The notes below the pieces were generated by a model. It was not told the DNA's origin, did not search any database, and saw only the letters and a program-made list of their open reading frames with translations. Below are positions 3,585 through 61,935 of a DNA stretch of 64,000 nucleotides, in pieces. Origin of the DNA: Amphiscolops sp. MND2022 (lineage: Eukaryota); NCBI GenBank assembly GCA_964187785.1, contig OZ076412.1:70556001-70620000 (forward strand), in the 5' to 3' direction. Within the stretch, counting starts at the first letter, position 1. Each line of letters begins with the position of its first letter. The position numbers and the translations under genes were made by a program.

Positions 3585-3747
3585 CCACATATACTTCTTA
3601 CAGGTCCCAGTATACTACTTTGACTATGGGACTGATCTGACTTCAACTAGAGATAACAATCCACTGCAACAAAAGACTATGTACAAACACTCTAAACAGA
3701 ATAATACAATACTACGACAAAAGTTTAAAAATGTACACTAGGAACAA

Positions 3748-37900: not shown

Positions 37901-39073
37901 AAGTTCTTAATCATGATGATTTTCCCTTGTTTCATGACAATTTTGTGTTTTACCCTAAATTTAAAACAAAGGCGAGACAGAGGCTTCCAAGTGTTCCGGG
38001 AACTCGTCCAGTTCCTTTTCAAATTGGGCCGACGCTGTATCCGACCAGCTAATTTACCCATTGAGAGTGACATGCTGAACATTTTGTGTCTGCCGATACC
38101 AGACGTCAAGGCCTTGAGCATCAGCGATTTCCTCTCAAGGTCAAAAGTAGAGACGAGACTCGAAACGACTTGTAAAGCCCAAGCAGAGGCTGAAAAAGGA
38201 GAGCGTAAAAATGAAGGATTGAAGCTGGAAGAGATCGCCTCGAAAATTAAAGAAGAGTTCGGACGGAGTGCCCGTTCCTACGTTATCTTTCTGTTTAAAG
38301 GGGCACAGGGGCTCACCCGATTCACCTCTGGTATAGTCAAAGGTCTAGGGTCTTTTGACCTCGAGATAATGCTGGTCGAGCCATTGGAGAATGCGGCGTA
38401 TTGCTTCAAGCAGCTCTTCACAAGTTTTCGACTCCGGGGATTATTGCAGCCAGAGGAGGAAACAGTTTATACTGAAGAGTATATGTCTTTCCGTGACATA
38501 CTTCGTCAATCTCACCCGGGTGTGCAACAGCCAAAGCTTTTGATTGCAGACACCATCGAATTCGTTTGTGGGCAAGAGTCCTTCAAGTCCAGAGTGTACC
38601 TGCGTCACATATTCCGGCTAAGTTGTTTGTGTCTGGATGAACATCGCCTGTCATTCCCGCTGGTCAAATTTGGTTCTCGTCGCACTGACGACCCTCTAAG
38701 TCCTATGTTCGATGTTATTGCGCCCATACAATCGTATCTTGACAATGTGCCCCGAGGTCTAGATGTCCTCACTAGCGATTCCTCCATCACGCGGTTCGTA
38801 GCATTAGAGCAAATTTTTGGTAATGGCGGGCTTAGTGATGTGTACAGCCTCTGGGATTCGATCGACCATTTTGGCAGGGTCCAAATTAGGGGAGCTCTAG
38901 GTACCGTCGGTACCGGGCAGTCGACGACTTCCAGCGTTGATGGAGCTGCTGAGAGCACTGGTTTGAAGCCTTTCGCTGTCCCAAAGCCTTACAAGCGCCG
39001 TAGTCATCTACTGTCTGGGAAGGAACTGGCGGATTCTGCTTCACGTCTTGCCGCTAGTTGCAGTAAAGATTAA
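34932..39073 (+). CDS. Antisense multi-exon gene of element E: zinc finger plus catalytically degenerate hAT-like domain
   Basis: Exon 1 34932-36932, exon 2 37079-37572 (1-nt frameshift near 37232), exon 3 37637-37771, and a terminal exon within 37880-39073. GT-AG introns in phase 0. Exon 4 unresolved. Confidence 0.85.
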
Positions 39074-39237
39074 TTGTACCATATGTACAAATGTATGTTA
39101 GACTTTGCCTCTCATGTATAAACTTTATCTTGTTTTGATTGTTTTATTGTTATTTTAGTCCAGTTTGTTGGTAATTTCCTAGTCAGTTTTAGTCTTTCAG
39201 TTGAGATTGTTGAAAGAGACAGAATATTACTATTTGT

Positions 39238-42200
39238 TTAGTATCTGTATTCATCAGTGAAGTTGAAGGTGGGGTTAGGACGAAGGTTATATTTCCTTCC
39301 TCTAGAGCTTTCATTTTCCACAATCATATCGTTTCCATCATCTAATACTTCAGGCACGATAGTATCGCTCCCGCCTGATGATTGTTGTTCATCAAGCCAG
39401 TCATTTGTCCCTTCTAAGGGTGTTTTTTCAAGCGATACGGGATTGTCACTTTGGTGTGGCCCGGTGGACCGAAGGTCCACGTCGGTGAAAATTTCGCCTG
39501 GTGGGCTGGTATTGTCCACAAAGCTACCTGGAGTGTCTGCGGTATCAAGACGCGTAGGATTTGCGGTTTCTGCAGTTGGATCGGGGAATTCTCCAAAATT
39601 AGTTTCCCACGTGATGACATATAGGTCATCTTGCGGAATAACAATTTCATCGTCCGGTTGCAAATTGCCTTCCGGTCGGTTGTCCTGTAGGGCAGTGTTC
39701 AATTAGTATTTGCGCAGTCTAATGCGGTGTAGGATTTGCGTTTTGTTGGAATTTAGTTTTCTAACTATGTAGTTTTCATTCGGTAAGACCTTTTCTACAA
39801 TGTAGGGTCCTGTCCATCGGTATTCGCGGATTGGAGTTTTCGATCCTTGGTGGTCAGCAATGGGTTGTAATATGAAACAATTTGTCTCAAAGGAGCCGTT
39901 TTGGCTTATCGGTCGTTTTGTCTCAAAGGAGCCGCTTTGGCTTATCGGTCAAATTATTCCTTGTATTTCAAATAGGATTGCATTATGTTTTTCTTTGTGG
40001 AATCTAGTAATATTTGGGTCCGTCTTTGAAATTCATCTGCGAAGTCTGTAGTCGGAAGGACCTTTGGGTTTGGGTTAAGGCCTAATTTGTGATCCAATAT
40101 AATATATGGGATTCTTCCGTGGAACATTCTGGATAGTTCACATCCCAGGGTGGCGTGATAAAATGTATTGTAATTCAATACGGCGGCAAGTTTTTGTGCC
40201 ACCGTCGCCTATAGTCCCCTGAGGCCATCTTGAGATTCGTTTTGAGACTAGCGTGAGTACGCTCTAGTTTACCGATTGTTTGCGGATGTTTTGTAGTTGC
40301 GCATTTTATTTGGATTCCTAGGATTTGAGCTACTTCAGCGATTAATTTGGACGTGAAGGCCGTCCCTTTGTCCGTGATCAAAGTAGTAGGCAAATAAGTA
40401 TGTTTGGTCATTATGTCTATAATAACCTTAGCCGTGTTTGTGGCCGAAGCATCGGTGACTGGATGTGCAAAAAGATATCGTGAAAACACGTCCAATGCGG
40501 TTATGATATTTTCGTACCCTCCACTGGGGGGCAGGTTTGGTAACAAATCAATTTGCCTTGCATCTTCTGGGCCTAAGTCGCATTCGGGCAAATTCAATAA
40601 TTCTGGTGTGATGGATGAGTTTGGAATTCTTTTGTCTTTGATACAGATTTCACATCCCTGAACTTATTGTCCGTCAGTATAATCACCGGTTTTGGGGTTC
40701 CCCGAAAGATATGTCCAAATTCCTTGAAAGCAAAGAAAATTGTTAAGAATTCTTTTGCATAGATGGACATTTTCTATTGGGTAGGACTAAAGGTCTTGGA
40801 TCCATAGGCTACTGGTGCGAAAGCCTTCCTCGTGGAAGTGTACTTTTCGAAAGGATCATCCTCAATGAGAACTGCGTACCCCGCGGCCGAAAAGTTGGCA
40901 TCTGTCATAGGAGCTATTTGCTTGTTCGGTAAGGGCTGTTTGAGTGCCAGTTCACAACATCGATCAAGAGCCTTGTTGATCTCGGTGAATTTTTCCAAGA
41001 GGTCCGGTGTTACCAGGACTTTTTCATCTTTAGTAAGTAGTCTGAAAAACGGTGTTAGTTTTTCTGATAATCTTGGGATGTAATTTCGGTAATAGTTTAG
41101 AAATCCCAAGTAACGCTGTAGTGCTTTCTTGGACTTCGGAAATTTTGCATTTTCCAGGAAGTTTTGGACCCGAGGTCTCTGCGGCTTCACTCCAGAAGGA
41201 GTGATGGTACGACCTAGGAAATCGATTTCCATTGCTCCGAAGTGACATTTGTGCATGGTAAGTTTCGGACCAGCTCTTTGAATGCATTGGAAAGTGGCCC
41301 TCAGGTTGTTGACGAGTTGTTCGGCATCATTAGCAGCGATGCCAATGTCATCAACGTATTGGGCACATTGGTCTGCTTTGATAACTTTATCCAAATATTC
41401 ACGCATAAAGCTGGAAAAGGCCGATAGGGCTCTACTAAGTCCTTGTGCCAGTCTTTTATATGCGAAGGTTCTGCTTGCGAAATTGAAGGTAAACAATTCG
41501 ATGGACCGCCGGTCAGCCATCTGTAGACAATGATATGCTTGCGAGCAGTCCAATTTGCAAAATAGCTTTTTCCCGGCCATGTGTTGGCCTGCGTCTGTGA
41601 GCGTACTCACCGTGTGATTGTTGTCTATGTAATCATTTGAAATGAGGTTGTTGAGTTTCCGTAAATCGACTAAAAGACGTAGTTTTCCATTGGTTTCTTT
41701 TGGGCAAAAATTGGGCTTGCATATTTGGAGAACGGGAGGGTTGTAATGATCCCATAACGGTGTAGTAGTGCTAGCTCCACAAGGATATCCTCCTTGAGAT
41801 TGATTAGGGTTGGTAAACTCTGACTATAGGCTGGGAAATCATCTTTCGGCGTCAATTTGACCTTGAAGTCCTCGTTCATGCCTATGTCAAATCGATGTCT
41901 TGCGAATATGTCGTGAAATTCGACAAGTAAGTCTTTTATGCGAGCTATTTCAGCTGGTTGTAGCATAGAGTCTGTCCAATCAAAATTGGACAAGAATTGT
42001 CGTCTGGACTCAGTGTCATCCTGAGGGTTAAATTTCTCTAGTTCCTGAAGGTTGATTAGGTCTGACAGAATCCTTTTCTGGATGGGTGTGTGATGCTGAG
42101 GGTCCCCAGGGTCTTCTGGTGTTGGGAACCAGTAATTCTCCCTGAAGTCCTCAGGTTTGGTAGATTTGATCAAGCTGCTTGCATAATGAGCAGCATTTAG

Positions 42201-43529
42201 TAGGTGCCATGTGGTCACCAGGTCTATAGATTCAACATATTTCATCCGTTCTTGTGTCAGAACAGTGAAAGTGGCTACTTGCGTGTCCTTTTTAAGAGTG
42301 TAGGGACTGTCAGTAAATTTCTTCAGGTGGACTGATACTTGACCATTGGTCAAGGTGACTAGAGCAGCACAAAAGGCTATATCGCCATCATCAGTGATGT
42401 TGTTGCTCGGTTGAAGGATCCCAGTAACTGTAGTGACCTCGTACAGTTGTGAAGCCATTAGGACCGAGTGTCGGCCATTAGGTGGGATGGTTACATCTTC
42501 CCTAATGCAAATGGGTTCCATGACATTAGTGTATTTGTGATCCGCGGTCTTTGATTGCATGGAAAAGAAAGGAAAATTTAGGACTCCTTGTCTCATGTCC
42601 AGGATAGTGTTGTTCCGTTGAAGGAACGAAAGGCCAATCAAAGGACTAGTGAGTTTTTCCATGACCATAAATATTTCGTGAAATTCTATGACGCCAACTT
42701 CAAATTTAGGTTCGACAGTGCTCTTTGGTGTTTCCAGCTGCTCATTTGCAACCATGATTTGGAAGTTGGGTGCCGGGCCCTCGTTGACAATAGACTGAGG
42801 GGCTAGTAATCCGATTTTACGTAGATCAGCTTTTGGGATTGCGCTAGATAGAGCTCCCGTGTCTAGAAGGCCATCTAGAGTTAGTTCGCCAAAATCCATT
42901 GGAAAATAGAGCATTCGTCGTTTGTGTTTGAGAACAAGATTGGTTGTTAGCGGTACATAGTCTGGTTCACCTGTTCTGGTGACTAGGGTGTTCACAAAGC
43001 GTGCTGTAACGGCTGTAGCCAGGGAGACTTGTGGTCCCACATGGTGGAATTCGTCGTCAACAGCAGCGTGATTCGTTTGATGAGTGAAGAAAGTGCCACG
43101 TTGCCATGGGTCGACTCGGGCCTTTACTAGGACCGCATTGAGTGCTTGATCAATTTCAGTGGAGTCTGACTCTATGTTCTGGTGTGGCTTGTTAAAATTA
43201 TGGTAGAAGTATAGATGATGTTTATTGTAGGAATTAGAGTCCCAATAGGGGTCAAAACCATAGTCAGGGTCAGGGTAGTGCGGGTTATAGTCATCAATAA
43301 GTGGTATCATTCGTATAGTGGAAGTATCGTTTTGTAGTCTGTTGGACATAGGGTCCAACGTGGTGGAAGAGATAGGTGGATTCTTCATCTGCTGCTGCCA
43401 GTCAGCCGATGGTGTTTCTTTAAGAGCTGTATAATATTCTGTATAATATTTGTTTGGAGGGTCAGATAATACGTATTGTCGAATTTCGAGTTTTGTGTTT
43501 ATTTGGAGTCGTGGCGAAGCTAGTTTTTT
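39238..43529 (-). pseudogene. pol: Element E pol; deletion near 40662 removes the RNase H end and integrase N-terminus
   Basis: LLDTGA protease, CAQYVDDIG RT, ALDVFSRYLF and ITDKGTAF integrase. ILTDNK is fused directly to GCEICIKDK. Confidence 0.93.
43523..43529 (-). promoter_or_regulatory. -1 ribosomal frameshift heptamer A AAA AAC (element E)
   Basis: Immediately precedes the gag TAG. The -1 frame is open into pol (LASPRLQ...). Confidence 0.75.
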
Positions 43530-44632
43530 GGATTTTTTAAGATTGAAGTTGTTTGCTTATTTTTTGTGTCTTCTTGGCTGGTGGACGTATCGGTAACTGT
43601 GGTGTCGTCCATTTTAAGGTTTCTGGGCTTGAGATGGGCTCCAGCGCCTTTCCAACATCGTTCCGCCGGGTGATTCGTTTTGTCGCAAGTTGGTCATTTT
43701 GGATATTCTTTCTTGGTATCCTGTCCGTCATTCCGGCGTTGTTCCTCCTTTCTTTTAGGTTTTCGACAATCATCCTTGACATGTCCGGGTTTTTTGCAAT
43801 AGTTGCAAGTAACGTTGGGATCAATGCCAGAAGAAAGAAGGCCAGTTCCCGGTCGTTTTGCTGTAGGGGCAGTGGACATTGTTGGTACGGGAATGTCGTC
43901 CCATTCCTCAAGTCCGTTGAGCTCTAGCTCACGTTCTAAATGGGTGACAATTTCTTCCTAGGTTGCGTTTTCAAGTCTAGCCATGTTGACTGAACGTTTT
44001 AATTTCGGCGGCAATTTGGCATATAGTAGGCTGTCGATCATTGCCTGGGCATTTTCGCCAAACGCTTTTTCTGCTCCTTGGTTGAGTTCTTCAAGGAAGT
44101 CTGGCAATTTCATGGTGTTTGGGTCAAACACCAATCTGTGCCATTTGTGTTTGGCGGTCGCCTGGGACTCTGGTTCGATGTATTTCCGACAAAATACTGC
44201 CAGGATGTCCTCCAAGGTTTGCCTGTTTGCCTTATTTATGTTACGGAAAGTTTGTAGAGCGTTCTTTCGTAACAATGAATGAACATGATTTATTTTCATT
44301 GTTTCAGTCATATCCGGCTGCATTTTAATCATTGTGTGAAAGAAATCTTCGAAAAGTTCAACTTTCTCTGATTTTCCGTCAAACGTCAGTGTAGTCGTAC
44401 TGACTGGGCGTACCATCAATGTTTGTTGGGATGGACGGTTATTCATACCGACTAGTACTTCTGAAACACGGTTGATAGGGTCAGAAGGAGTTGTAGGTGC
44501 TGTAGTCTCAGGGACTTGAGGGATTGTTTCCTGAGGCTCGTGATCGGTCGAATTGTGGCGTTGCAGGGGTTCACGGGATTGCATGGGACGTCCAGTGAGA
44601 AACTCAGGAACCAAATGTAGGGTAGGGCTGGC

Positions 44633-44643
44633 TCCTGTCACCA
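44633..44643 (-). promoter_or_regulatory. Primer-binding site TGGTGACAGGA (element E)
   Basis: Follows the 5' LTR end and is absent after the 3' LTR end. Confidence 0.85.
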
Positions 44644-46263
44644 TGTCGTGGTTTTGTTCACTATTCACAGAGTCTACTGAACTCTGTCGTGATCTTAGTC
44701 TATTGTTTTCCTGCATAAAACACTTTCTAGGGCAATTTTCCCACAATTTCTGCGCGTCTTCAACTTCGGAGTTCCAATGTAGCCCCACTGGACCTTCGGT
44801 CTCCCGTGGTGAAATTAGCTGATTTTGAACTATCATGTAGCCCAATGGACTCTCGGTCCACCACGGTGTGATTTACTCTGTCCTGCATTTCCAACGTATT
44901 TTGGAAGGAAGGAAGTATTTTCTCAGTGATTGCGCTACTAATAGCGTCTTGTATTTGAATGTTCAAGCTATTTTTGATTTTATTTAGTTTCCTTGACATT
45001 TGATTAGAAATCTCTTCATTAATCATTCTAGTGGTCTCAATAGTAATTTCATTATTCTCCTTGCTATTTGTATTGAGTAAAGATCTAAAATCCTCCCCAA
45101 TTACGTTCGAACTTTGCTGTGGCCTATTGGACCCTGAGTCCAAATTTACTCCGTTTTTACTAATATCATTTTCCTCATCATCCCTGGAGTAGCTTCCGAG
45201 CATTATATCAACATTTTCCACGTTGGACATCATGTCCAATTGTCTAGATCGTCGCTCTTTAGCTTTTTGTTTCCTGGTTGAAGGCATCGAAGAATCAATT
45301 TAATCAATAATGAATTGATCAAAAGAAGTTATCGAAACAGATTTCAACAAGTGAAAAGACAAATCAATTTATGTAGGATTTGTGAACGTAGTGTTAGGTA
45401 TCGCAATTACTGTAAGAATCATCCTCGGGACCTGGCGTCCCTGCTATTTATATTTTCCACTGCATTAACAGGTCATTGTTTTAAATTTAGCCCCAAAAAA
45501 GGCTAAAAACAGCCTTGAGGGAGATGACATCATTATTACCTCACTTTCAAGTAACTATAAATAGCAACAGGTTATATTAAAGCAAAAGGTGTGGGGGTTT
45601 CAAAGTTATACCAGAGGGCCTTTTAGCATCAAATAAAATCTACATGTGCGTCATAATATCATCATGATTGCATAACGGATATAGTAAGCAAATAAACGCG
45701 TTAATAATACCAAAGCGGGCCTAAAGTCCGAATAGCTACAGCACAGTGACGTCATAGTCATAGTATATGAATAACACCATGGCGAACTCAAGGTCCGTTT
45801 GACTACAGTAAATATAATACTGCCTTCTGATTGGCTATGAGTGTTATAGACAGCGCGTACAATTTGGCAAAGGAAACAAGCATTTGAACTCGTTTCCTTT
45901 GCTACGTACAATTGCTAATTACCAATTTCACAGCGTTGAATTTATTCAATTTGCCATTGCTATTACATCAATTAACTAACAGTTCTAGGTAACACAAACA
46001 CTAAATAGATAAAAATAATACTCCAAAATATGGTTAATATCCGTATAAGAGTGAGTTTAAGTTTGAAACATTTATTGTAGGCAAATCGACCGACGGTCTA
46101 CTATGGTGTAATTTGCATTCCTCTTGTCGTATGCCATGATGGTGCTTCTTAAGTCGCTGAGTTTTTCTTAATTAGATCGGTAGAACTTCTGGGGGTGGAT
46201 TGGGCACACTAATTCCCGCTGGAATTTGATATAGAATCCCGTCACAGGCGGCAGCCTGCGACA
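44644..46263 (-). repeat. 5' LTR of element E (1620 bp)
   Basis: Aligns with 31405-33035. Confidence 0.95.
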
Positions 46264-46268
46264 GCTAT

Positions 46269-47155
46269 ATTTAGACCTTCCAGGAGTCTGACGCAATATT
46301 ATATTTTTAACATTTGACCCTAGAAACATTACGTTATGATGATTTACATAAAATTGAAAGTCATGTAACTAAAAACACCACCCAATAGGATCAGTTGAAG
46401 GAGGATCATCAAAAGATCATTCTTCTAACCATCATTCGAAAAATATCACACATTCAGAGCAGTCATTCAATTTCACAAACAAATCACAATCCCCAAACTT
46501 CGCAGTTTCCTTTCTCTGTAAAAATAACTTCCACAGTTTCATTTTGCCAAAATATCTTTGTAATTCAAAGATTTTTGCACCCAACATTGTTTTCATTATG
46601 GGAAACAAGAGAAATAGACGATCGAGGAGAGTAGAGTCTCAATCATCAGACAGAGACGAAAATACTTCAGAAACAAGCTTCGCTCAAGGTAATGGGACTT
46701 TAGTTGGTGTTTCTGAAAATGTTAATAATGTTCTTGACAGGAACTTAGGCAGCGAACTAACAGAACCTTCTCTGATAAGCAATGAGATAGAAGTCATTTC
46801 GCAAAGACTAACAGAGCAGAATAACGACAAGATGTCACAGATTGAAGAGCAACTAAATAACAAATTCGAAGAGATACTTAAGGAGACTAGAACAAACAAA
46901 AACCACCTTGTAATAACTGATGAAGAGGATGTTGAGAACAATCAGCCCCGTCCTTCTAACTATAGAAATAAGGGTCTCAGGAACAAACACGCATCAAATT
47001 GAACATCAGATAAAAATAAGAATCAGGATGACCGGTTCTATCCTCTGAAATGAGTGAATTAAGACAACCGTACACTCCTCTTGGGATTGCTGAAGACACT
47101 TTAGACGAAACCAACATCATAAATGAAAACAGACAGGAAAGGGCCGATCATCACA
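46269..47155 (+). repeat. Element F 5' LTR, right part
   Basis: Aligns with ~61040-61935 and ends GGGCCGATCATCACA followed by TGG. Confidence 0.92.
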
Positions 47156-47166
47156 TGGTGACAGGA
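47156..47166 (+). promoter_or_regulatory. Primer-binding site TGGTGACAGGA (element F)
   Basis: Follows the LTR-terminal CA. Confidence 0.85.
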
Positions 47167-48122
47167 CCTACCAAGAACATCCTGAGACAAAGTTCGACTA
47201 ACTCCACCACCAATACACAAGGACCACACGCACAATTTCCTCTCGAGCATCCTGAACCAACAGATCCCGTCAGTCAAATTGCCATAGGAATCGAAAACTT
47301 CGCAAGAAGAAATACCGAACCATCCCTTTTTCACCCGAAGAACACACTTACTTTCAATGGGAAATTAGATAAAAATGAAAAATTTGAGTATTTTGAAGAT
47401 CTTTTCCACACAACACTCAAAATGCAACCACACCTCACGGAAAACATGAAAATCAACCATTTTCATGCCCATCTAAGAGGACTAGCATTGAAAACTTTTA
47501 AAAACATCCAACGATTTCCGACAACAACACTTGAAGGTATACTAGTAGTCTTCAGAAGGAAATATGTTAAGCCTGAATCCAGTGCTTCTGCAAAACACAG
47601 ATTTAACCGGCTCATGTTCCAACCAGTTCAACCAGGCTTACCTCGAAAACGGTACCTAAGAACAAATAGTGAGACATCTAGAAAGAGAGATGGAGCTCAA
47701 TGGACTCGAAGCAGATGAGCCCCTAATGAAAACTCAAATGACTGCAGTCAAACAACAAACCAACACACAAAACACTAAACACCCCCACAAAACACAAAAA
47801 CAAAAACAAAAACTCCAAACACAGTACCCAACAGCACACTTCAAGATAACCAATGCCGATATTGCAAGAATGAAGGCCACATAGCAAAAGAAAGCCCAAA
47901 AGTTGCAAAACGACAGAAAATGGATCAAGACCCAGATGCACCAAGATGTTACCATTGTAACACCCCTGGTCATGAAGAACCAAACTGTTACTTCGGAGCA
48001 AACATGGAAAATCGTCCACCTAAATGGACACTCACCGAAACCCAGAAAAAACTAATCGAAGAATATAAAAAATCAAACAAGCCAATCAACCCTCGAAATC
48101 TCGAACCTTCGACATCGAAGGA

Positions 48123-48129
48123 TTTAAAC
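48123..48129 (+). promoter_or_regulatory. -1 ribosomal frameshift heptamer T TTA AAC (element F)
   Basis: Immediately precedes the gag TAA. The -1 frame reads LMKPRLQ, matching LASPRLQ in E. Confidence 0.75.
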
Positions 48130-51100
48130 TAATGAAGCCACGCCTTCAAACCACAACACCCCAAAAACAATGCTCAGCAGATGACTGGCAGCATCCGCCG
48201 AGCCCCAAACCTATAAAAATCACAACCTACAATCACAACTCGACAAACAAAAAAGACTCTCCGACTGCAAACACTCAAACTACACCACCTTCAAAAGAGG
48301 ATCTTTATGACTTACTCAAAGATGCCCCAGATAATTATCGACTACGATCCATGTTTGAACCTGAAACTGAAACCGAAACACAAAATCAGCAACCCACAAT
48401 CTCGCGACCTCAAGAAACACAAACTGACCAATTAAAAGTACAATCCACATCGACAACCCAAACTGACGATGACACTACATCGGAATTAACCAACACTCTC
48501 TTCAGTGCGTCTCCTGGAAAGCAACCCCTCCTTGATGCCGACGTTTTTAATTACCTCACAACAGACGAAGGTAATAACGTCGCATACCTAAAACTTTCCA
48601 CAAACCTTACCCTCGAAAGAAGCGTCATATGTACTATTTCCCAATTGATTTCGAGAATTTAACTCTGGATGGACTCATTGATACTGGCGCCCTTACAAGC
48701 GCCATTTCTGAAGAAGATCTCAACAAAATAAAACTCCTTTCAAACGAAGCCATAAAAGATACTGGTCCAGCACCCAATTTTCAAATCATGGTGGCAAATG
48801 GTCATTTTGAGCAACCCATCGGCACCGTCTTACTTCACTTTGAAGTAGCAGACTTCCAATTTCAAGAGAACTTCATTGTCATGAAGGTACTACCCAACCC
48901 ATTAATCGGCCTGTGTTTGTTACAAGGACACAATGCCATGTTTGACATTCGTCAAGGGATAATTACTTTCTTTTACCTGTCGATGCAACTACGACCAGAC
49001 CGCACAACAAATACCCGAACAACAACACCCCTCCTAACAGAAACTTCATTGACCCTACAACCTGGAGAAACCCTCGCAATCTCCAGCAAAATGCCACACC
49101 TGATAGATCACAATGCCACAGGTATTGTCACTCCGTCGTCACTAATGGAAGATCACGAAAGTATTTTCATTACATCTTCCCTATGTACGGTTAATAACAA
49201 TACAGTGGGCTAACAAGTGATCAATTTTTCGGATATGCCTTACACTCCTCCTATTGACACACACATGGCAGACTTCCGAGTTCTTACGCTCGAACAGATT
49301 AAACACATCAAACCTGTTAATCCATCAACCCTCACATTCATGATGCATCAATACATGGAATACACAGATCTATACCTCAACCAATTGATGAAAACAAATC
49401 AATCATCAGATGAACCAGAAACTTACTGGTTCCCAACGCCTGAGGAACCTGGGGATCCAGATACATACATTCCAATACAACAACGCATATTTGATGAACT
49501 ACTGGAATTCAAACAGCTAGAACCATTAAACCCAAACGACAACGATGAGTCAAGAATGAAATTTTTCAGTCACTTCGACTGGACAGACACTACCCTAAGC
49601 CCGTTCGACAAACAACACATAGAAGACATCCTGGTACAATATCACGACATCTTCGCAAGACATCGTTTCGATATAGGTACCAATAGAGAATTCAAGGTCA
49701 AACTGACTCCGAATGATGACAGACCAGCCTACAGTCAAAGTCTTCCTACACCCATCAACCTCAAGGTCGACATAACTGTTGAACTGGCCCTTCTTCATCG
49801 TTATGGAATCATCACGACCCTACCGTTCTCTAAATACGCAAGCCCTATTTTTCCTCAGAGAAAACCAAACGGACGCCTTCGACTTTTAGTGGATCTACGC
49901 AAAATCAACAACCTCATCACTCTGGACTACGTGAACAACAATCACCCAGTTAGCACTCTGTCAGATGCAGCACCGCATATGGCCGGCAAGAAACTTTTTT
50001 GCAAACTTGATTGCTCTCAAGCATATCACTGCTTGCAAATGGCAGACTACTAGTCCATACAGATGTTAGCCTTTAATTTCGCAAGTCGAACATTCGCATA
50101 TCGCCGCCTTGCACAAGGTCTCAGCCGATCACTGTCTGCTTTCTCATCCTTCATGAGAGAATATTTGGATAAGGCAATCAAAGCTGATCAGTGCGCTCAA
50201 TATGTCGATGACATTGGTATCGCTGCGAACGATTCTACCCAGCTTTGCATCAACATCAAAACAGTCTCTGAATGCATACGCAAAGCAGGACTCAAACTTA
50301 CGATGGCCAAATGCCACTTCGGAGTCAAACAAGTTGACTTCTTGGGTCGGACAATTACCCCAGAAGGAGTCTCTCCACAAACTGCAAAAGTCAAACAATT
50401 CCTTCAAAAACTCAAATTTCCGAAATCCAAAAAAGCACTCCACAGATATATTGGGTTTCTCAACTACTACAGAAACTACATCCTTCGCTTATCAGAAAAA
50501 CTAACCCCCTTTTTCAAATTGCTCAAACAAACATCACAATTCTCCATTCCGGATACAATTCTAGAGGCATTCAAAACTCTCAACCAGCAACTGGAACAAT
50601 CATGCAAACTTGCTCTCAAACAACCGATCAAAAACAAACAACTCATTTTAATGACCGACGCTAGCTTTACAGCGGCAGGATACGCCATCATGATTGAGGA
50701 TGATCCCGACCAAAAGCTCCAATCTAGAAGGAAAACCTACGCTCCAATAGCCTTTGGTTCAAAAACTTTTAATCCAACCCAATTGAATATGTCCATACAC
50801 GCAAAAGAGTTCCTAGCAATCTACTTTGCATTTTGTGAATTTGGACACTTAATGTGGGGCAGCGTTTTTCCTGATATCGTCTTCACAGATAACAGATCTG
50901 TAACTCGCTTTTTTCAAACCAAAATCAACCCTCCGGCTCTTTGGAATGCATGCGATTACGTCCTCCAATACAATTACGTCATTGCACATGTTGCCGGGGC
51001 CATGAATACGGCTGCAGATTGCCTATCGCGAGCTGAATCGAACCCCACAGAAAAACTTGAAATGAACATCCGCAATGATGTCAATACAAAAGCAATTGAA

Positions 51101-53116
51101 GTTAACATACAGTCCACTGGGGTCGCCGAAGAGGAACTCCTATACATACTTCCTGGAGAATCCCCCACGAAACAACAATTGTGGGAAGAAAAAGAAGCAA
51201 TTCGTCAATAAGCAAAAACTGAAACCCACAACGAACCGGAAAATGAAGTGTTCGAACTACAAACTTTCCACAAACCCACAGCGGGAACCATCAACTAAAG
51301 AGAGGGTCACTTCAAAGACAATGCAAAAATCCGCTTAGAACAAAACAATGATGAAGTCTTTGAAGACGCAGTTTGAGAGCCAAAATTGAAGGCAAACCCT
51401 ACGACGAAACATAATTCACACAAGACTACCAATACAAACATTATTTACAAAACATCACGAGGATTGAAATCAAGCAAGATGTCCCAACAAGAAGATACTA
51501 CAATGACGCTGGGATGATATCCCAATACCAAATTCTTCTACCTAAACAACTCCTAGATGAACTCCTTCATGCCCTTCATGGTCATAATGCAAATCATCAG
51601 GGAATAACTAAAATGATCCAAGAAGCACGACAAAAATACTACTACCCGTGCATCGCCAAATATATCCGGAATTGAGTGACAAAATGTCAAATGTGCATCC
51701 AAAACAAACGGATCAGCAATGACCTACTCAAAACGAAACTACTAAACTGCCCTGAATGGGATTCAGGCCCAGAAGACATCCTACAATTGGACATCTTTCC
51801 CAATCTCCCACCATGCGGAGGATATGACAATATCATCACTGAAATAGACGTGTTCTCACGCTATTTGTTTGCCTATCCAGTCACGAGAATCACTGCTCCA
51901 GCAGTTGCAAAAATGCTTATGGACATTTTGTGTAAACACACATATCTACCCACAACAATCATTACCGACATGGGCACCCAATTTAATTCTCAGGTTACAA
52001 AAGAAGTAGCCGCAGTCTTGAACATAGAACTGAAACATGAAACGACAAAACACGCCCAAACAATTGGACTCTTAGAACGTACTCATGCATCAGTCAAAGC
52101 GCACCTTAAGGCAGCCACTGGAGAATTTAGAAATAATTGGCACAAGTTTTTACCATTGGCGGTCTTAAACCATAATACAACCTACCATGCAACACTAGGA
52201 TGTGAACCTACACGGGTCTTCCATGGAAGAATTCCACACAATATATTAGATTTCAAACTTGGATACAACCCAAATCCTCGTTTCCAACCCCAAACTGAGG
52301 TAGCAGAGGAAGTACAAAGAAAGATTGCTTTACTTCATGATCAAACGAAGAAAAATATCATGCAATCTTACCTCAAATATAAAGCATATTACGACAGGAA
52401 AGTAAAGGCATCACCTCTAACGACAGAGGATTATTGCTTTATCCTGAATCCAAAGGCCGACACACAAGCCACGAAGATACCTCTCGTGAATTTCGTTGGG
52501 TTCTTCCCTAAAAAGTTGAAAGAGTCCTACCGAACAACAATTATATTGTTCGCAGATTGGGCACAAATAAAACCCAACTACTCCACCGCATTAGACTACG
52601 AAAATACACTCCACAAACTCCTCTCGCAGACAATTTTGTCAGAGAAACTGACTGGCAGAAAGAGGATACACTTGTCTCTCAAGATGATTTATACGCCCAT
52701 GCTTGAGACAGCAATTTTGGCAGCAGTCCATTTGATCCTGACCACGAAAACTGTGATCAACAGGAAAACACAGTGGAATATGAACCTACTTCTCAACCAA
52801 AAATATACCACCCTCCCGCCCTCAATAATTCAAAAAATAGTGGGGGATCCCAGCAGGACAACCTGCTGCGAACGACAAAGAACCTCAAATAACCAAAAAA
52901 ACTTCTTCAGAAAATGAAAATCATGAGCCCATCCCAGAAACTTCCAGAAATCCAGAAGATACTCAAGAAATCCCTTCCCAAAATTCCCCAGAAACTCCCG
53001 AAAATAACCCAGAAATAGATGCACAAGAAGCTGAAGAAACTGTCAACACAAGAGGCGAAAAAAATAACCTACGCCCAAACCCCAACCCAAACTACTCAGA
53101 CTCTTTTAGATACTAA
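48123..53116 (+). pseudogene. pol: Element F pol (protease, RT, RNase H, integrase), several stops and frameshifts
   Basis: LIDTGA, CAQYVDDIG, LMTDASF, EIDVFSRYLF, ITDMGTQF and IGLLERTH. C-terminal NLRPNPNPNYSDSFRY*. Confidence 0.95.
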
Positions 53117-53384: not shown

Positions 53385-56300
53385 TCACTTATCTTCAACA
53401 TTCTTCTTTCGGGCGACAAGTTTTTTAGAAGATCCTTGCTTCACCTCAGGCAGGAAAGGTATGTCGGTCACACGCCGAGTTACGGAAACAACAAGAGTAC
53501 CAAGAACAGGAGACTTTCGGGTGTTTTTAGCAGAATTGCCAGTAGCGCTGGGCCCAACTTGAATAGAAGTAGGTACAGCAAATTTAGGAGGAGACCGGAC
53601 GGATGTAGAGTCAGGTTTCTTGGGACTACTTTGAAGCGAAACCCAAAGCTTTTCTTCATCGGAAACAGTACATGTTTATCGTGAGTCCAGTTGGTTAGAC
53701 AGTCGTCGGCGCCGAGAAGAACATGAGAAAGTTATGTCCCAAACTCTGAAATTTTCATCCTCTAACAGACTCTGACCTCGTCCAAGTAAAGAGAAGACCG
53801 AGGACACAGTTCGTGGATTCGAATATAACTCAGACACACTAGGAACTCCAAATAAAGAGGACTGTACACTCCTTACACATGACTGGAACTCATTAATATC
53901 GGATTTCAAGTCCTCTAGAGCAAAAGTAAAGATGTGTGGAATGATAGGAGCAGCGGGGAGACACAGATTGAAAATGGAGAACAAATTTTCCCGGCAATGT
54001 AGTTCATAATAATTTGTTAAAAAGGTAATCCATTCGCCTTTGTAAGAAACATCATGCGATCTGAACTTCTCCACAAACGACCAGTATTCAGTCAGGATCA
54101 GCGGTTTAGCGGCATGGGATACCCATTTTTGCTGAACAAAGAAGTCACAAAGCATTTCGGATTCGTGAGTGTAATCCACCTCTTCCCAAAATCGAATAAG
54201 GGCTTCGTCGAAGATTGAAAAACCGCGAACAAGCTTTGACTTACAAAGTTTATGCTTCAAGAGAAGAATGCATACGTTCTTACAGAAACTTAGGGCTTGC
54301 TCCACAAAATGCGAGGGCGTCGGCAGATCACTTTCAGCAACCAGGTCGGCGAAGTCTTTGTTGCGTAAGAAGTCGGCTACAGTTTTGTAAGGCAAATTAG
54401 GGGACGAGAGATCAATAGTCAAGAAATGGTCCCAATTAGAAATGTCGCCCAAGAAGGAAACGGGGAGTATGGTCTGTAATTGACTGTAAACAAAGGTAGC
54501 AAAAGCACTGAAGACGCGGAAACCATCTGGGGGGTGATGGCCCGATCACTCCTTTGAAAGCTGAAGTATCTAAACAAGCAGAATATTGAGCACACTTAGA
54601 GTGATACGAATTATGAATGAAGAATAACAACTAACAGTGCAAGAGGACATTTCGGATCAAAAACAACTTGACCGCATACGTTTTGTCCTTGACGAATGTT
54701 TCATCTAGACTCTTTGGCTGAAGAAAACACATACTAAAAAATCGAACAACACGCGAGACGCAAAAATAATAATAAAAACAATAAATACCTCTTTCATGTG
54801 ATATTTGAATGCCTTCATTCGATCAGCAAGTCGAAGATGTGAGACAACATGGCTCCAATTACGATACAATTGCTCAAGGATTATGACTGATTCCTCATGA
54901 CTGTACTTGAGACTAGAAATTGCCTGAAACAACAAACAAAATCGGAAATTATGATGCATTATGCTGAATTCTGAATACAGTATAGGATGTCACACAGCAT
55001 ACATCAGTAATTATGCGGATTATGCGGTTTTCAGAAGGAAACAGCATAGAAGAACGAATTATGCGGTTTTCAGAAGAAAACAGCATAGAAGAATGATATA
55101 TGCGGTCTTCAGAAGAAAGCAGTATAGACGAATGAATAATGCGGTTTTCAGAAGAAAACAGCATAGAAGAATGAATTATGCGGTTTTCAGAAGAAAACAG
55201 CATAGAAGAATGAATTATGCGGTTTTCAGAAGAAAACAGCATAGAAGAATGAATTATGCGGTTTTCAGAAGAAAACGGCATAGAAGAATGAATTGTGCGG
55301 TTTTCAGAAGAAAACAGCATGGAAGAATGAATTATGCGGTTTCCACGAGGAAACAGCGCAAAAGAACGAATTATGCGGCTCCCAGGGAAGGACAGTACGA
55401 AGGAAAGAATTATGCAGTTTTCAGGAGAAAACAGCATAAAAGAACAAACCGTATCATCTATACCGTTTTCTGGAGAAAACGGCATAGGAGGATGTATCAC
55501 GAGACTTAGAAGAAAACAGCCTATATGATATAGTACCCGAAAGAAAACAGTAAAAAACACAAGGAATACGAAACCGAACTAAATAAAAATCAATGGTAGA
55601 ATTAGCTAGTGATTCGACTAATATTATGCAACATTATGCGGTTTTCGGAACACAGAATAGGAAGACTATGACTCAACGTAGACTACAACACAAAGCGCAA
55701 ACGTGGAAATTAGTACACCTAGAAAGAATAAAATTACGTTGGAATGAGGGACATCAAAACATTCCAAAAATTAAATGAAATTACCTTGCGGAGTTCAGGG
55801 AGATCGCTGAGCCACACAGAGCCAGTGGCTGATCGTAATTTCATCAAGAGGAATTGCAGCACGCTGTGATGGTCATAACGGTCAAGAATTTTGATAGCAG
55901 GACCAGCTAAGACTTTGCCCAAATCTTCGAAAGAAAACGTGGGTATTACACATACGTTTGGTGCCTGGACTAATTCTGCTGAAATGGTTTTCGTAGTGCG
56001 CCCGTCAAAACCCATGACTGAGTAAAGTGGGGGAACGGTCGGAAAGATGGCTAAGAAAGAACTGATCGTTTGAAGGATCTCTTTGGGCGAATTGAGGCTG
56101 TTTGTAAATTCAGCCAACAGAAACCGATTGAAGTCATTTCCGGACCAGAAGACCAGGATGAGCTGAGAATCGTATTGTTCCGTTCGAAGTTGTAGCGAAA
56201 ATTGTCCTGATTGGCCAATGGAAGTCGAAGAGTAAGAGAGCAGTGTGCGGAACATATGGACCAGAATACCCTGTAAATGTTAGAAGACAAACAGTTAAAA

Positions 56301-57720
56301 TGTAGACAGGAATATGTCAGAAGTTGTTTAGAATGACAGGAAAAGGAAATACTTACGAAAATGCGTGCAACACTCCAATCGTATTGGGGAACTTTGACAG
56401 GCCCGCGGACCTCGAGACTGAGATTGGACCAAAGTGAGGATAAGATGGTTGAGTCACCCCCTTGTTGTAGACCGGTTAACAAATCCGTATTTGAGAACAA
56501 ACTACAGACGATGGATCGAGTTCGTCAATTGCTACAGGAAACTTTCGTTGTCCTGGTAACAAGTAGCATTCTCCCAGTATTGGAATGATGGGGTACGCAA
56601 GCTCAGCTTTCTCTCGAGCCTCGACAAGGGCCGGACCTGTTAGCTCTTGCTCATCTTTCCCGAAAAGCGGCAACCCCGGAGTTTCCATCCTAATTCGTCG
56701 CTCGCGAACCAGGTGGGAGTCTATTCTGTAATGGGAAAGAATTTGCAAAGATCCTTTCGTTTTGAGGGATAACTCAATGTGGGCAGACTCTACAACGCCA
56801 CTTATGGGGATGATTCTCGGAAACAGCAGGCGCGGTCACAAAAAACTTAAAAACCGGATGCTTTTTGTACATGCTTCCAGTTAACTGAAGCCTTGGCCTG
56901 GGTCTATTTGATGCAGAAGCTTGGTCTCCCTGAGGATCATGAGGAGGTACTCGATCTCTCGCCCGTAATTGGCTCCTTTCTCGTCGCGATCTTCCCGGAG
57001 GAGGTGTAGGTTGATCTTCACTTACACTTGTTGGGGAAAACACAAGCGAAGAATCAAGATTTATCCCACTCGTTTCTGCCAAGGTGGTTGCCCCAGTGGT
57101 AACAGTGGGAGTCATCGAGAACTGTTCAAACAACCTTGAGCTAACTGCAGTCGTTACCTCAGAAACCAAAACTTGCATTCGTCGCTCAAGGGCGGCTAGA
57201 TCTGAACTGGTGACAAATTCATTTCCTGAGAACTGGGGAGGTATGGCTGATGTACTTGCGACTAAAGCGCTGAATGCAGCTACGTCGGGGTTGTTGTCCT
57301 GCGGTGGTTGGTAGATGAAATTTGAGAAGGATGAGAACGGAGTCCGCTCCGATGGAGTGTCAATGGCAGTAACGTCGACGTTTTGGGTCACATTAGGATC
57401 AGCTAGTTCATCCATTGGAGTTATGCTAGCTCTTGAGTCTGGCCTTGGATTCACATCAGGTAAATCAGCGACAGTGCCAGGATCACCGAGAAAACAAATT
57501 GCAGTTTCTGTGGGGACCGCACTAGTGTTGAGGCTCTTGTCAAAAGAATGTTTTATCCCATCAGCGTCGACGGAAGTTCCAGAACTCTCTTCGAAGGCGT
57601 AATTATGATCAGGAGTAGAATGATGCGGAGGAAGACCAAAAGGGAGCAACAAAGCCAAATCACCGGTAGCTGAAGTCGATTGAACTGGCAGATTAGATGC
57701 CGCGGTGTCTGAAACACAAC
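53385..57720 (-). pseudogene. Antisense multi-exon gene of element F: zinc finger plus degenerate hAT-like domain
   Basis: KWRCRVC...KTKG...ILSHY...H finger near 56700-56790. Introns 56356-56271, 55784-54924, 54788-54718 and a donor at 54635. The last exon includes ORF 53676-54452. The 5' end is uncertain. Confidence 0.82.
55018..55495. repeat. Minisatellite, 39-bp unit AATTATGCGGTTTTCAGAAGAAAACAGCATAGAAGAATG, about 11-12 copies
   Basis: Direct reading of the sequence. It lies inside predicted intron 2 of the F antisense gene. Confidence 0.95.
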
Positions 57721-59288
57721 CAAATCAAGAAATCAAGAATAGAGGACAGTTAGGAACGAAAACCAACTGTTAATACAATGAAAACCTGATCAACTTTCAC
57801 TTTAAAAAAACAGAACTAGTTCGACAAAATTGTTCATCAACTTGGACAAGAAATCCGGAAATAATTTTGTGAAAGTTGACGAGAATTGGAAATCTGTTCA
57901 ACATTTAAAACGGGATGTTAGAAAATGTCCGGTGATGACTGATTGAAATCTAATACTCAGATGCCTTCCCCTATTTCAATGAATCTGGAAGAATGTGATC
58001 TAGAAATACAAACCTTGTGTGGAGGGCTCGTCTCCTTTCTGTTCAGACATCCCGTTTCACTACTGGCGAAAGAAGAGTAGAAGCTCGGAAAAGGATGAAA
58101 TCGTACTGGAATAATAATTGAGGAAAGGAGCAAGACAAAATGCGAGCAGGCTGTGTAAACCAAGACGAAGAAGCGAATAATGATTTGCTGGTAGAAACAA
58201 TGAAGAAGGCTCAAAATCCTGAGGAAGAGAAGAAAAGACAATGTCTAAATCTGAAAACTATAATGTAGAGAGGTAAACTCGAATTAAAGAAGATCTGAAA
58301 ACTGATAAAAGAAGTGTGGAAGTGAAGCTGTAGGACTATCTCGACTACAAGATTAGGACGATTAAAAGACTGTGAAAACAAAAGGAATTGAAAGATTTTC
58401 AATGCAAAGATTGAAGGCAGAAGGCGTGACTATTAGCGTGAAAGGCAAGAAAGCAAATGGACGACGTCAGTATTGTCGTTTTCAGCGTATCTCAAACTTG
58501 ATTGGCTAAGAAGGATGTACGTAGTTTGGACAGCTCTGCCAGCGTACACCAATCGTTCAGCGCAACTAAGAACGCCAATGCATAATCACACGACGTTGGG
58601 AGCGCTTCGGAGCAGCATAACTATGCAAAATCTTATGCTGAAAACTTACTAGAGCAGTATGACGCGATTATGCGGAATTGAGTGAAAAACAGCATAATGA
58701 ATTTATGGTGATAGCAAAGAACTATGATGCATTATGATGTTTTCAGTGAGAAGTATATGATGTAAATTACTACTAATACTGCCTCTTCATATGTTATGAG
58801 GTGTTAAATGAATGAATGAAAATTTACACTTCGAAAGGAGTGATTCATGCAACGAAGCGTGAAAACTTTCACTTTGATAAACCTGAATGAACCTATGATA
58901 TATTTAATTATGAGCAATTAAAATTATTCAGACAGAATAAGAAGACGACAATTGAAACATAAAAGAAAATGAAAAGAAAATTTCAGGATCTGATGATTGT
59001 TTATATGACAATAACAATTTTACCGGTGCTATTCCCCCGATATCTCATGATAAATTACCTGAAAACCCGGGAAATGGGTAATTCGAGATATGTTTTGATG
59101 CTATTTGTAAGAAAACCTCTGTAACCCAATAAAAACTATAAGATCTTATCATTCTGATCATAAATCTTCAAAAACTAGCCGCTTATTTTTCCTCCCTCTC
59201 TTTGACAAATTCCTTGAGAAATTTATAATCATATTGTGTTAAATCTTCTTGAAACTTGACTGGAATTAAATAAACTCATAGTCTGACA

Positions 59289-60233
59289 ATGGAGAGCACA
59301 CCACGAAACTCGATCCTTAATAGAACAGATTCAATGAACCCTGTATTGGACCTGATCAACATCTCAAGTAGTTCGGGGGAAGAATTCATGGTGGAGCCCC
59401 TCTCAGTGAACGATCGCGATGAAAGATTTAGATCTGCCCCATACCCTCTGACATACATGTCCACAGCCTTTATGGGGGCAGCAGGAGCAGTGTTATTCCC
59501 TAACAGTACCGATCCACAAGCAGGAGAAGGTCAACAAATTGGTACTAGAAACTCTCGTATCGAAAATGAACTGATGGACCTCATGGATGACGTATCTAAT
59601 ATATCCTCCCTGACCTTCATCGGATCATCAGAAGAAGAAGACAATCCGTTCCTTGGTGCCAATTTCGCTAATGTAGATCAGGCTGAAAGAAACAGCTATG
59701 GTCGACCAGTCCAAAGGGTACAACCTATGGTTAGAACCCCAAGAGTAACAAGAGCAACAGTGAACCCGCTCGTACCAAGTAGCAGAAGCGCTTTCTCAGT
59801 GGTAATACCGGAACAAAGAAGGGCTCCAGAAATACAAACACACCCACCTATGCAAGCTAATTACTTGCCTATGCCCATTCCATTTTACCCCAATAATTGG
59901 AAGAATATTACACATCCTCAACAAAACTTTCACGGTCAAGCTCAATTTCAACATCAGTTGCCGCCTAACGGGCTTATATTGCAGATGAACCCCTCAGTAA
60001 AGCCCGAAGTGGCCGGGTTTTGTGCTGGCTGTTCCAAAACTTATGACCAAATTGCTGTCGAGACGCTCACACACTATGTTGCGTGGTCCGAATATCCAGA
60101 CGAAACAATTTGCGATCGCAATGTGAGGTCAAGAGCATTTGTTGATGGGTTTGGAGCAGCGCTGATCGTCTTCAAAAATGCTGGACTGTCGCCGGCTCAC
60201 CCGTGTGAGATGTCCGGAGTGCCACATCGATGA
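59289..60233 (+). CDS. Sense accessory ORF-S of element F (314 aa, intact), stop inside the 3' LTR
   Basis: ATG-to-stop open. C-terminal GFCAGCSKT...E.LTHY...AFVDGFGA is homologous to ORF-S of A and E. Confidence 0.8.
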   Translation: MESTPRNSILNRTDSMNPVLDLINISSSSGEEFMVEPLSVNDRDERFRSAPYPLTYMSTAFMGAAGAVLFPNSTDPQAGEGQQIGTRNSRIENELMDLMDDVSNISSLTFIGSSEEEDNPFLGANFANVDQAERNSYGRPVQRVQPMVRTPRVTRATVNPLVPSSRSAFSVVIPEQRRAPEIQTHPPMQANYLPMPIPFYPNNWKNITHPQQNFHGQAQFQHQLPPNGLILQMNPSVKPEVAGFCAGCSKTYDQIAVETLTHYVAWSEYPDETICDRNVRSRAFVDGFGAALIVFKNAGLSPAHPCEMSGVPHR

Positions 60234-61935
60234 AGCAGTCAACGCTGCTTACCCATCATGATGGCTGTCTACCCGAATATGGACAAGAACTTGATAAACA
60301 TTTCAAAGTTTAAACTTAAACAATACTTGTTTTTTTTCGTTTGATAAAATGTTGCTTTTAGTTGTACATTTCATTTAAAATGATGATTGTTGAACGTCGT
60401 TATTGATTTTATAGTTTCACCTATAGGGTGCGTTGATCAATTGAAAAACAACTGGAAAGGTAACGCCAAAGTTATCAAAACAGTGCTAAATCTTTGTTTT
60501 GTCGTCTTCAATGATAGGAAGGAATTAAATTCAATGGTCCTATATATCTTTGCTACATTAAGTCATTTGTAGTTCAATCATGAGGAAAACAATCAAAAAC
60601 AGTATGATGATCCATTTAAAAATCAGCATAATGATTTCGTACGTTTCTTTGATACTGCTTATGCGGCATTATGCAGTTTCCATAAAACAGCATATGCGGT
60701 TTTGTTAAAGAAACAGCATAATGATTATGTACGCAGTGTAGTTTTGTACCTTGTATTGCATGACGCGGTAATTCAGCAGAAACAGCATGATGACTTGAGT
60801 TAGAAACAGCATATGCGGAAACCCTGTGGAAACAGTATGACGTTTCAATATAAGAACAGCATATGCGGAAATTTGACAGAAACAGTATGATGTTTTAACT
60901 TAAAAACAGTATGAAGATTCTTTTTTCAGTTGATAAAATTATACTGAATTATGAGGTTTTCATGAGACAGCATATACTGCATTATGACGTCAAACAGCAT
61001 AATTTGCAGGATTTTCAGTGCTACGATGTTGTAAGTCACAGTGCTTTGTTTGGACTTTCCAGGAGTCTGACGCAATATTATATTTTTAACATTTGACCCT
61101 AGAAACATGACGATATGATGATTTACATAAAATTGAAAGTCATGTAACTAAAAATACCACCCAAAAGGATCGGTTGAAGGGGGACCATCAAAAAATCATT
61201 CTTCTAACCATCATTCGAGAAATATCACACATTCAGAGCAGTCATTCAATTTCACAAACAAATCACAATCCCCAAACTTCGCAGTTTCCTTTCTCTGTAA
61301 AAATAACTTCCACAGTTTCATTTTGCCAAAATATCTTTGTAATTCAAAGATTTTTGCACCCAACATTGTTTTCATCATGGGAAACAAGAGAAATAGACGA
61401 TCGAGGAGAGTAGAGTCTCAATCATCAGACAGAGACGAAAATACTTCAGAAACAAGCTTCACTCAAGGTAATGGGACTTTAGTTGGTGTTTCTGAAAATG
61501 TTAATAATGTTCTTGACAGGAACTTAGGCAGCGAACTAACAGAACCTTCTCTGATAAGCAATGAGATAGAAGTCATTTCGCAAAGACTAACAGAGCAGAA
61601 TAACGACAAGATGTCACAGATTGAAGAGCAACTAAATAACAAATTCGAAGAGATACTTAAGGAGATTAGAACAAACAAAAACCACCTTGTAATAACTGAT
61701 GAAGAGGATGTTGAGAACAATCAGCCCCGTCCTTCTAACTATAGAAATAAGGGTCTCAGGAACAAACACGCATCAAATTCAACATCCAATAAAGATAAGA
61801 ATCAGGATGACCGGTTCTATCCGTCTGAAATGAGTGAATTAAGACAACCGTACACTCCTCTTGGGATTGCTGAAGACACTTTAGACGAAACCATCATCAT
61901 AAATGAAAACAGACAGGAAAGGGCCGATCATCACA
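60187..61935 (+). repeat. 3' LTR of element F (1749 bp)
   Basis: TGTCGCCGGC...CATCACA followed by TSD GAGAG. Confidence 0.95.

Follow-up and report, generated by a model that had tools for sequence, protein, structure and literature searches.

What is the protein encoded by the sense open reading frame that lies just upstream of the 3' LTR of a long retrotransposon of Amphiscolops sp., and why does this frame run through the plus-strand primer site and into the LTR itself? The window, by which we mean the whole stretch of 64,000 nucleotides analysed here, holds LTR retrotransposons nested within one another, in a genome of 1.07 Gb, and the frame in question, ORF-S, belongs to the element that we call F, the parts of which are as follows.

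30595-61935, plus strand: element F, with a flanking GAGAG duplication.
30595-31404 and 46264-47155, plus strand: 5' LTR of F, split by element E.
31405-46263, minus strand: element E, with a GCTAT duplication, sitting in the 5' LTR of F.
46598-52917, plus strand: gag-pol of F, with capsid, CCHC, protease, RT, RNase H and integrase, broken in this copy.
47156-47166, plus strand: PBS of F, TGGTGACAGGA, directly after the 5' LTR; gag reads through it.
53676-57724, minus strand: three-piece antisense gene, likely with introns, that encodes a BED/C2H2-like finger and faces ORF-S head-to-head.
59289-60233, plus strand: ORF-S of F, an intact ATG-to-TGA frame of 314 amino acids with its stop 47 nt inside the 3' LTR.
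60187-61935, plus strand: 3' LTR of F, 1,749 bp, opening with TGTCGCC.

Element F has paired TG...CA LTRs, a 5-bp target-site duplication and a PBS, and its LTR identity is 95.8% and 97.7% for the two 5' parts, compared with 97.3% in E. Pfam matches place capsid and CCHC in gag and give the order protease-RT-RNase H-integrase in pol, which is seen intact in a relative, and the pol order therefore assigns the element to Ty3/Gypsy. Whole-element stretches of four families share the same layout of gag, pol, three-piece antisense gene, ORF-S and LTR, and the genomic RNA of these elements is 13-15 kb long. In this genome, 1,061 sites match a tRNA 3'-end pattern that is complementary to the PBS, and most of the 100 that were detailed lie in a tandem array (C8:35.59-35.63 Mb and beyond) with units that by eye resemble intron-containing tRNA-Leu(CAA) genes (ARAGORN in bacterial mode called none); we consider a tRNA-Leu the likely primer. 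About 45 nt of a tRNA 3' half including CCA are also found at a PBS-like position, once (C2:1972720 region) adjoining an LTR-end-like TGTCG, which suggests that the primer tRNA may have been copied. Head-to-tail arrays of elements are frequent in the genome, with a period of 14-15 kb and LTRs that are apparently shared (e.g., C13:16.09-16.12 Mb, C7:62.49-62.52 Mb and C5:67.77-67.79 Mb). The window also holds a 1.65-kb direct duplication of 93.6% identity (12167-15596), an inverted-repeat element of ~2 kb (15637-17716), and a fourth related element, D, with its 5' LTR and PBS at 27469-25870 (minus strand); a pattern scan of the window found no ORF-S motif for D.

The preliminary description had assigned such a sense frame to three elements of the window, namely A (8943-9977), E (33913-33014) and F, each with its stop 20-47 nt inside the LTR. 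For F this holds, as the frame is uninterrupted from upstream of the 3' LTR to the stop within it, but the two other copies must be redrawn.

9194-9977, plus strand: ORF-S of A, broken by stops and frameshifts, its start counted from the translation.
33014-33772, minus strand: ORF-S of E, with the family start MSLQF at 33772 and its stop 22 nt inside the LTR.

The A copy is not one ORF, having in-frame stops and frameshifts with only the last 84 codons open (its LTR start at 9937 is inferred from the motif), and the codon at 33913 from which E was read is GTG and not the family start. Among intact relatives, those of the F and G types end 44-47 nt into the LTR and those of the A/E types 92-95 nt into it, and the 22 and 41 nt seen in the window are specific to these copies; E departs from the frame of its family at the LTR junction.

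That ORF-S is nonetheless a genuine second accessory gene, as had been proposed, is supported by its fixed position and frame among homologues and by purifying selection. Every family of this genome that was examined has homologues at the same place and in the same frame, each of five domain searches of the genome gave at least 150 scored matches (from 3,058-8,355 candidates), and a frame of at least 310 codons is kept in 18 of the 30 best F-family loci. Among 15 F-family pairs, omega for the C-terminal domain is 0.00-0.11 in the 12 that are not dS-saturated, and pN/pS, pooled and uncorrected over pairs that are non-independent, is 0.10 (F), 0.16 (G) and 0.30 (A/E) in the domain and 0.42-0.51 over most of the N-terminus. 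ORF-S and RT give the same family grouping, (F,G) versus (A/E,H), by which measure ORF-S is co-inherited with RT, and the domain is 24-35% identical where RT is 77-83% identical, a far faster divergence that would fit a role in host- or self-recognition. A profile search of 1.84 billion representatives returned 357 clusters at E <=0.001, the best 150 of these 357 being detailed, and for 10 divergent homologues none of the cluster members is named. Two divergent ORF-S families were not found in this genome at strict thresholds and the family therefore reaches other assemblies; the association of ORF-S with an LTR is established in this genome, and one protein query of a metagenome collection found no locus.

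The passage of ORF-S through the plus-strand primer site and into the LTR is likewise confirmed, in that the frame continues across the junction and codon constraint is seen inside the LTR.

60183-60192, plus strand: plus-strand primer/LTR junction of F, GGAC/TGTCGC (the slash marks the LTR edge), read Gly-Leu-Ser, with a 4-nt purine run.

Among 28 family representatives the junction has the consensus GGA[CG]/T[GC]T[CT][GA]C and no canonical PPT is seen, the purine run before the LTR being 4-8 nt in length and ending in GGA[CG] in 28/28. The synonymous third positions are near-invariant (A at -2 in 28/28, G at +2 in 27/28, and G in 26 and A in 2 at +5), and because this fixation is not attributable to the protein, the junction bases are DNA-level signals. 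The earlier idea that coding explains the conserved TGTCGC start of the LTR thus has its causal direction reversed for the first bases: it is more likely that the integrase/RNase H signal imposes the xTG codon at the edge, where the residue column contains V, L or M only, as such a codon forces. The first LTR codons are also under protein-level constraint, as the same description implied, since inside the LTR codon positions 1 and 2 vary less than position 3 in each of the three groups (conservation of 0.94/0.92/0.74 in F, 0.82/0.81/0.63 in G and 0.81/0.83/0.57 in A/E). Moreover, the Cys codon at LTR +18 to +20 begins with TG in 28/28 copies and has only C or T as third base, and in 117 of 131 cases the CxxC and the G-[VLM]-S at the LTR edge are spaced by exactly 50 residues. 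DNA-signal and protein constraints overlap at the LTR start. One could read the whole frame as neutral, a side effect of DNA or RNA signals close to the LTR, which the fixing of the junction bases at the DNA level would favour, but the codon-level constraint among copies (omega 0.00-0.11), the codon pattern that continues in the LTR and the 50-residue spacing refute this reading, the probability of which is vanishingly small.

The opposite LTR edge is also coding, as gag begins within the LTR and crosses the PBS as [HDY]-M-V-T-G in every case found.

46598-47170 and 61377-61935, plus strand: gag start in the F LTRs, with the gag ATG at 61377 and ~560 nt inside the LTR.

The element is unusual in having both LTR edges protein-coding and a PPT shrunk to a few bases. 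The LTR overlap is probably a matter of signal compaction, in which the integrase TG would fix the xTG codon and the protein would use the next 14-30 codons.

As ORF-S is located ~6 kb downstream of pol and is head-to-head with the antisense gene, it requires its own RNA, and two promoter-like features bear on how this might be made.

59148-59181, plus strand: Inr-like ATCATTC with a predicted +1 at 59151 and AG[TC] at +27, a candidate internal core promoter.
61213/61240, plus strand: Inr/DPE-like pair in the 3' LTR of F, with the same pattern as before ORF-S.

Of 28 copies, 19 have CAT[TA] with AG[TC] at +27/+28 upstream of ORF-S, where shuffles give an expectation of 1.9, and the combination is found in the LTR upstream of gag in 7 of 22 copies (2.2 expected), comprising 5/5 F, 2/5 G and 0/12 A/E, although these expectation values overstate the significance because the pattern was defined after viewing the alignments and the copies are related. 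The A/E LTRs bear a TATA box instead. The pair fits the Inr and DPE consensus and spacing. Its AG might alternatively serve as a splice or trans-splice acceptor, and an acoel is described as trans-splicing 30% of its genes (PMC9911081). Transcription of ORF-S from its own internal promoter is nevertheless likely on the basis of these motifs, and the subgenomic RNA would begin near 59151 and end in the 3' LTR. HIV and SIV nef and retroviral 3' accessory genes are separate sense ORFs over the PPT and U3, and ORF-S resembles them as a separate sense ORF across PPT/U3, but it differs from nef in having no sequence or fold match, no canonical PPT that can be seen, and likely an internal promoter rather than splicing.

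What the protein does must be sought in its two parts, the first of which is the C-terminal domain.

60015-60206, plus strand: conserved C-terminal domain of F, with CxxC at 60021-60032, two predicted helices and G-[LV]-S-x4-C.
60204-60206, plus strand: third Cys, inside the LTR.

The C-terminal pattern that had been noticed in three copies extends to 24 genome copies, which are 22-76% identical to F and have 12 invariant columns. Three Cys are invariant in total, the CxxC pair and the LTR-encoded distal Cys. An AlphaFold2 model from a 78-sequence alignment predicts a CxxC knuckle and then two helices (mean pLDDT 76.7, with 83-97 in the core blocks), and the third Cys is in an uncertain tail of the model (pLDDT 52-64). 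No significant match was found by Pfam (full proteins and 24 domain copies), by two profiles against PDB sequences, by the ESM Atlas for the domain, or by Foldseek against PDB (both models) and BFVD (first model), and a wide VIA-align search with both models gave a best Z of 5.8, to unrelated helical hairpins; these absent library matches say nothing firm on the newness of the fold. The possibility raised at the outset that the domain is a known gypsy ORF3/env fragment is not borne out by Pfam, PDB or BFVD. A weak match to the Rad50 hook has E 0.012 in 1 of 24 members with Pfam and E 1.5 with a PDB profile, and a zinc hook or knuckle has four ligands, within or between chains. A likeness to Nef, with E 3.5 and a TM-score of only 0.21, is noise. 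The proteins have neither a RING pattern nor a Pfam RING match, with three invariant Cys only.

The A/E types carry an Arg-rich helix in this domain (RIRRRNAF or RQRRRHAF), and such a helix would suit a role of ORF-S on RNA or on the particle, either in the export of the 13-15 kb genomic RNA, a Rev/CERV-like role, or in tethering of the integration complex in the manner of a CR motif. The targeting motif of group A CRM elements is described as being encoded inside the 3' LTR (PMC3059260), and the SIM discussed below could read SUMOylated chromatin. On the other hand, the domain is close to neutral in net charge (-3 to +4), the Arg positions pair in conservation with two invariant Glu, suggesting that they form structural salt bridges, and the ORF is ~6 kb from pol and unfused to integrase, so that we regard a role of this type as rather improbable. 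In group A CRM the LTR overlap is the integrase C-terminus, whereas ORF-S is a separate gene ~6 kb past pol in an animal lineage. An integrase extension of the CR-motif type was rejected, as pol has its own stop ~6 kb upstream and the antisense gene lies between.

The N-terminal part of the protein, which spans 190-280 residues, contains two features of note.

59352-59387, plus strand: SIM-like motif of F, with core LINI followed by the Ser/acidic SSSSGEE, a predicted phospho-SIM.
59289-59900, plus strand: Lys-free stretch of F, residues 1-204, acidic and Pro/Gln/Asn-rich, predicted from its composition to be disordered.

This region had been characterized as acidic and of low complexity; it is indeed acidic, being net negative in all 37 non-redundant long homologues, but it carries conserved motifs beyond low complexity. 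A SIM-like core with an S/D/E tract is found in 25 of the 37 with a textbook-style rule (1.5 expected from shuffles) and in 29 with an alignment-tuned pattern (0.5 expected). Of the 12 that fail the textbook rule, several are truncated at the N-terminus and others vary in the core. Examples are LINISSSSGEE, VIDISSESGEE and VIYISSDEEE, with the reversed DSDIEVI in A/E types, and most proteins have one match and 4 of 37 have two, with no tandem-SIM layout. The pooled pN/pS of the motif is 0.10, 0.21 and 0.16 in the three groups versus 0.42-0.51 in the rest of the N-terminus, and by this estimate it is as constrained as the folded domain. By definition, a phospho-SIM has S/T and acidic residues beside its hydrophobic core (PMC8430037), and phospho-SIMs exist in PML, Daxx and PIAS1 (PMC4276917).

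The second feature is the depletion of lysine. The N-regions of the 37 proteins contain 74 Lys versus 402 Arg in 8,375 residues (0.88% versus 4.80%), with a Lys-free run of at least 150 residues in 23, compared with 7.9-8.5% Lys in Gag and 6.4-6.8% in Pol of the same elements. The depletion is strong in F/G types (runs mostly of 200-333 aa) and weaker in A/E and several divergent ones (some 46-112), and Lys-free runs, here of 88-150, occur in the antisense protein as well. Acidic activation domains are likewise Lys-poor. Lys deserts that retain Arg are reported to be enriched in proteins of the ubiquitin system, including Slx5 and San1, and the same source allows that viral proteins may lose lysines merely for stability (10.1101/2022.12.08.519562).

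Among other conserved motifs are an N-terminal [QTY]-F-x-hydrophobic-[DE] in 15/37, [ST]-P-x-S-P and [GA]-R-x-M-T, and none of the 37 proteins has a basic NLS-like run. Some G-type ORF-S proteins contain RGRGRG repeats, which we take as a possible arginine-methylation/Tudor-binding signal. The earlier judgement that the protein has no TM segment and is not env-like agrees with a hydropathy scan, in which a 19-residue window reaches 1.6 in 2/37 and 1.9 in 0/37. An env-like protein, or a membrane protein of the sORF2/FAST type serving cell-to-cell spread, would suit the position between pol and the 3' LTR and the mildly hydrophobic end of helix 2, but without TM-level hydropathy or a Pfam match, and with N-termini that are acidic and not signal-like, the env/fusogen reading was rejected and any membrane role is highly improbable. 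Moreover, sORF2 is described as a transmembrane protein of ~70 aa encoded upstream of gag (PMC11952523).

We propose, tentatively and with somewhat less than even confidence, that ORF-S is a separately expressed accessory protein that engages the SUMO/ubiquitin system of the host, probably against silencing. The host genome carries a SUMO gene, the nearest named relatives of which are acoel proteins, in keeping with an acoel host. The N-terminal SIM would likely bind this SUMO, and its Ser tract would undergo CK2-type phosphorylation. The CxxC and the LTR-encoded Cys would bind zinc or dimerise, and family specificity would come from contact of the domain with a partner, which may be a ubiquitin ligase of the host or the finger protein that the element's antisense gene encodes. 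In the nucleus, the protein may then act as a lysine-poor adaptor or decoy that blunts SUMO-dependent silencing of the element, a proposal in which the anti-silencing direction is itself conjectural. Like viral SIM proteins and cellular STUbLs (HSV-1 ICP0, KSHV K-Rta; RNF4, RNF111, Slx5), ORF-S has a SIM-like core with an S/D/E flank in an acidic region. STUbLs carry tandem SIMs, whereas ORF-S usually has a single one, lacks a RING, and has an unmatched C-terminal CxxC-helix-helix-Cys; by these features ORF-S is not a STUbL and the likeness is in working logic at most. The lysine desert is shared with Slx5 and RNF111 (10.1101/2022.12.08.519562; PMC8430037). The viral SIM proteins ICP0 and K-Rta are described as SUMO-targeted ligases (PMC8430037), and Piwi silencing in Drosophila uses a SUMO ligase and SIM-bearing effectors through SUMO-SIM contacts (PMC8490990).

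Caution is called for in that ORF-S has no RING or other ligase domain, mostly a single SIM and no NLS-like run, and a SIM can equally recruit repressors. The same sequence features would fit a self-limiting repressor, in which the SIM brings SUMO-dependent co-repressors to the element or ties up a host factor to control copy number, and SIMs are typical of silencing effectors (PMC8490990). This lineage, however, is present at very high copy number with recent identical copies, which makes self-limitation quite improbable in our estimate.

The antisense gene must also be considered in any account of ORF-S, as the three-piece finger gene is present in all four families examined. It has no Pfam match, and its Atlas leads score 0.81-0.84 (all <0.9) and are zf-BED, zf-C2H2_12 and FAM200/ZBED5 clusters, which suggests a hAT-transposase origin. 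In the F family, clusters of AAACAG[CT]AT, nearly all in one orientation (55000-55450, 58500-58760 and 60500-61000), are located in the intron (as a 39-bp tandem array), the intergenic region and U3, much as in VANDAL target arrays; none were seen in A-type or G-family stretches. These observations bear on the possibility that ORF-S is a trans-activator or co-activator in a Tat/Tax/TnpA-like role, with the acidic N-terminus as an activation domain that the antisense finger protein brings to promoters and the SIM incidental or secondary. The net negative N-regions in 37/37, the short conserved hydrophobic-acidic motifs, and the head-to-head arrangement with the BED/C2H2-like finger gene in four of four families argue for such a role, and the F-family clusters recall the targets described for VANC (PMC5735166). 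It is nonetheless unlikely in our view, as constraint on the SIM-like segment is far stronger than on the remaining acidic region and the clusters are unseen in the A-type and G-family stretches.

The engagement of the SUMO/ubiquitin system that we favour may be extended to include both genes. In this more speculative and somewhat unlikely form, the two would constitute a counter-silencing module driven from a bidirectional internal promoter, in which the transposase-derived finger protein would recognise the element and SUMOylated silencing factors would be removed or neutralised by ORF-S, acting as an adaptor with a phospho-SIM, a lysine desert and a new zinc domain.

How far does this arrangement depart from known systems? 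Gypsy elements with additional ORFs in sense or antisense orientation have been described (PMC7264820; PMC5408684; PMC11952523), and those of Athila/Bagy2 (env-like), of Grande/RIRE2/Retand (antisense) and of bdelloids (ORF3 types) share with the present elements the Gypsy backbone and extra ORFs, in both orientations, that are conserved in most copies. The present elements differ from them in pairing two divergent accessory genes and in having a sense ORF that runs across the PPT/LTR junction, and ORF-S itself has no TM segment and, with Pfam, no similarity to GDSL, DEDDy or env. The MDG1-group sORF1 is likewise a helical accessory protein of a Gypsy-family element, and is described as separately expressed and subnuclear (PMC11952523), but it is ~110 aa and lies upstream of gag. 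Plant DNA transposons are known to encode anti-silencing proteins (PMC5735166; 10.64898/2026.08.24.746577), and ORF-S resembles VANC and TnpA in being transposon-encoded, in diverging quickly between families and, in one family (F), in its association with non-coding motif clusters; these, however, are transposase-derived DNA binders of plant DNA transposons, and here the DNA-binding candidate is the antisense gene. As a layout this is not categorically new, since Gypsy elements with extra ORFs and ORFs that overlap a 3' LTR have both been described. The literature searched contained no account of this ORF or of a SIM-bearing retrotransposon accessory protein, and on this search the protein family is apparently undescribed, in a position of known kind.

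ORF-S represents a family that is without a match among the libraries searched, is under selection, is found in hundreds of clusters, and has a motif set pointing to the SUMO/ubiquitin system. The SUMO system is the one used in Piwi-guided transposon silencing in flies, and the finding bears on how retrotransposons may counter silencing in animals. LTR elements are reported to make up about half of the genome in acoels (PMC9911081). The two-gene module, if true, would give a retrotransposon its equivalent of herpesvirus ICP0 and might partly account for the LTR-rich genomes of acoels.
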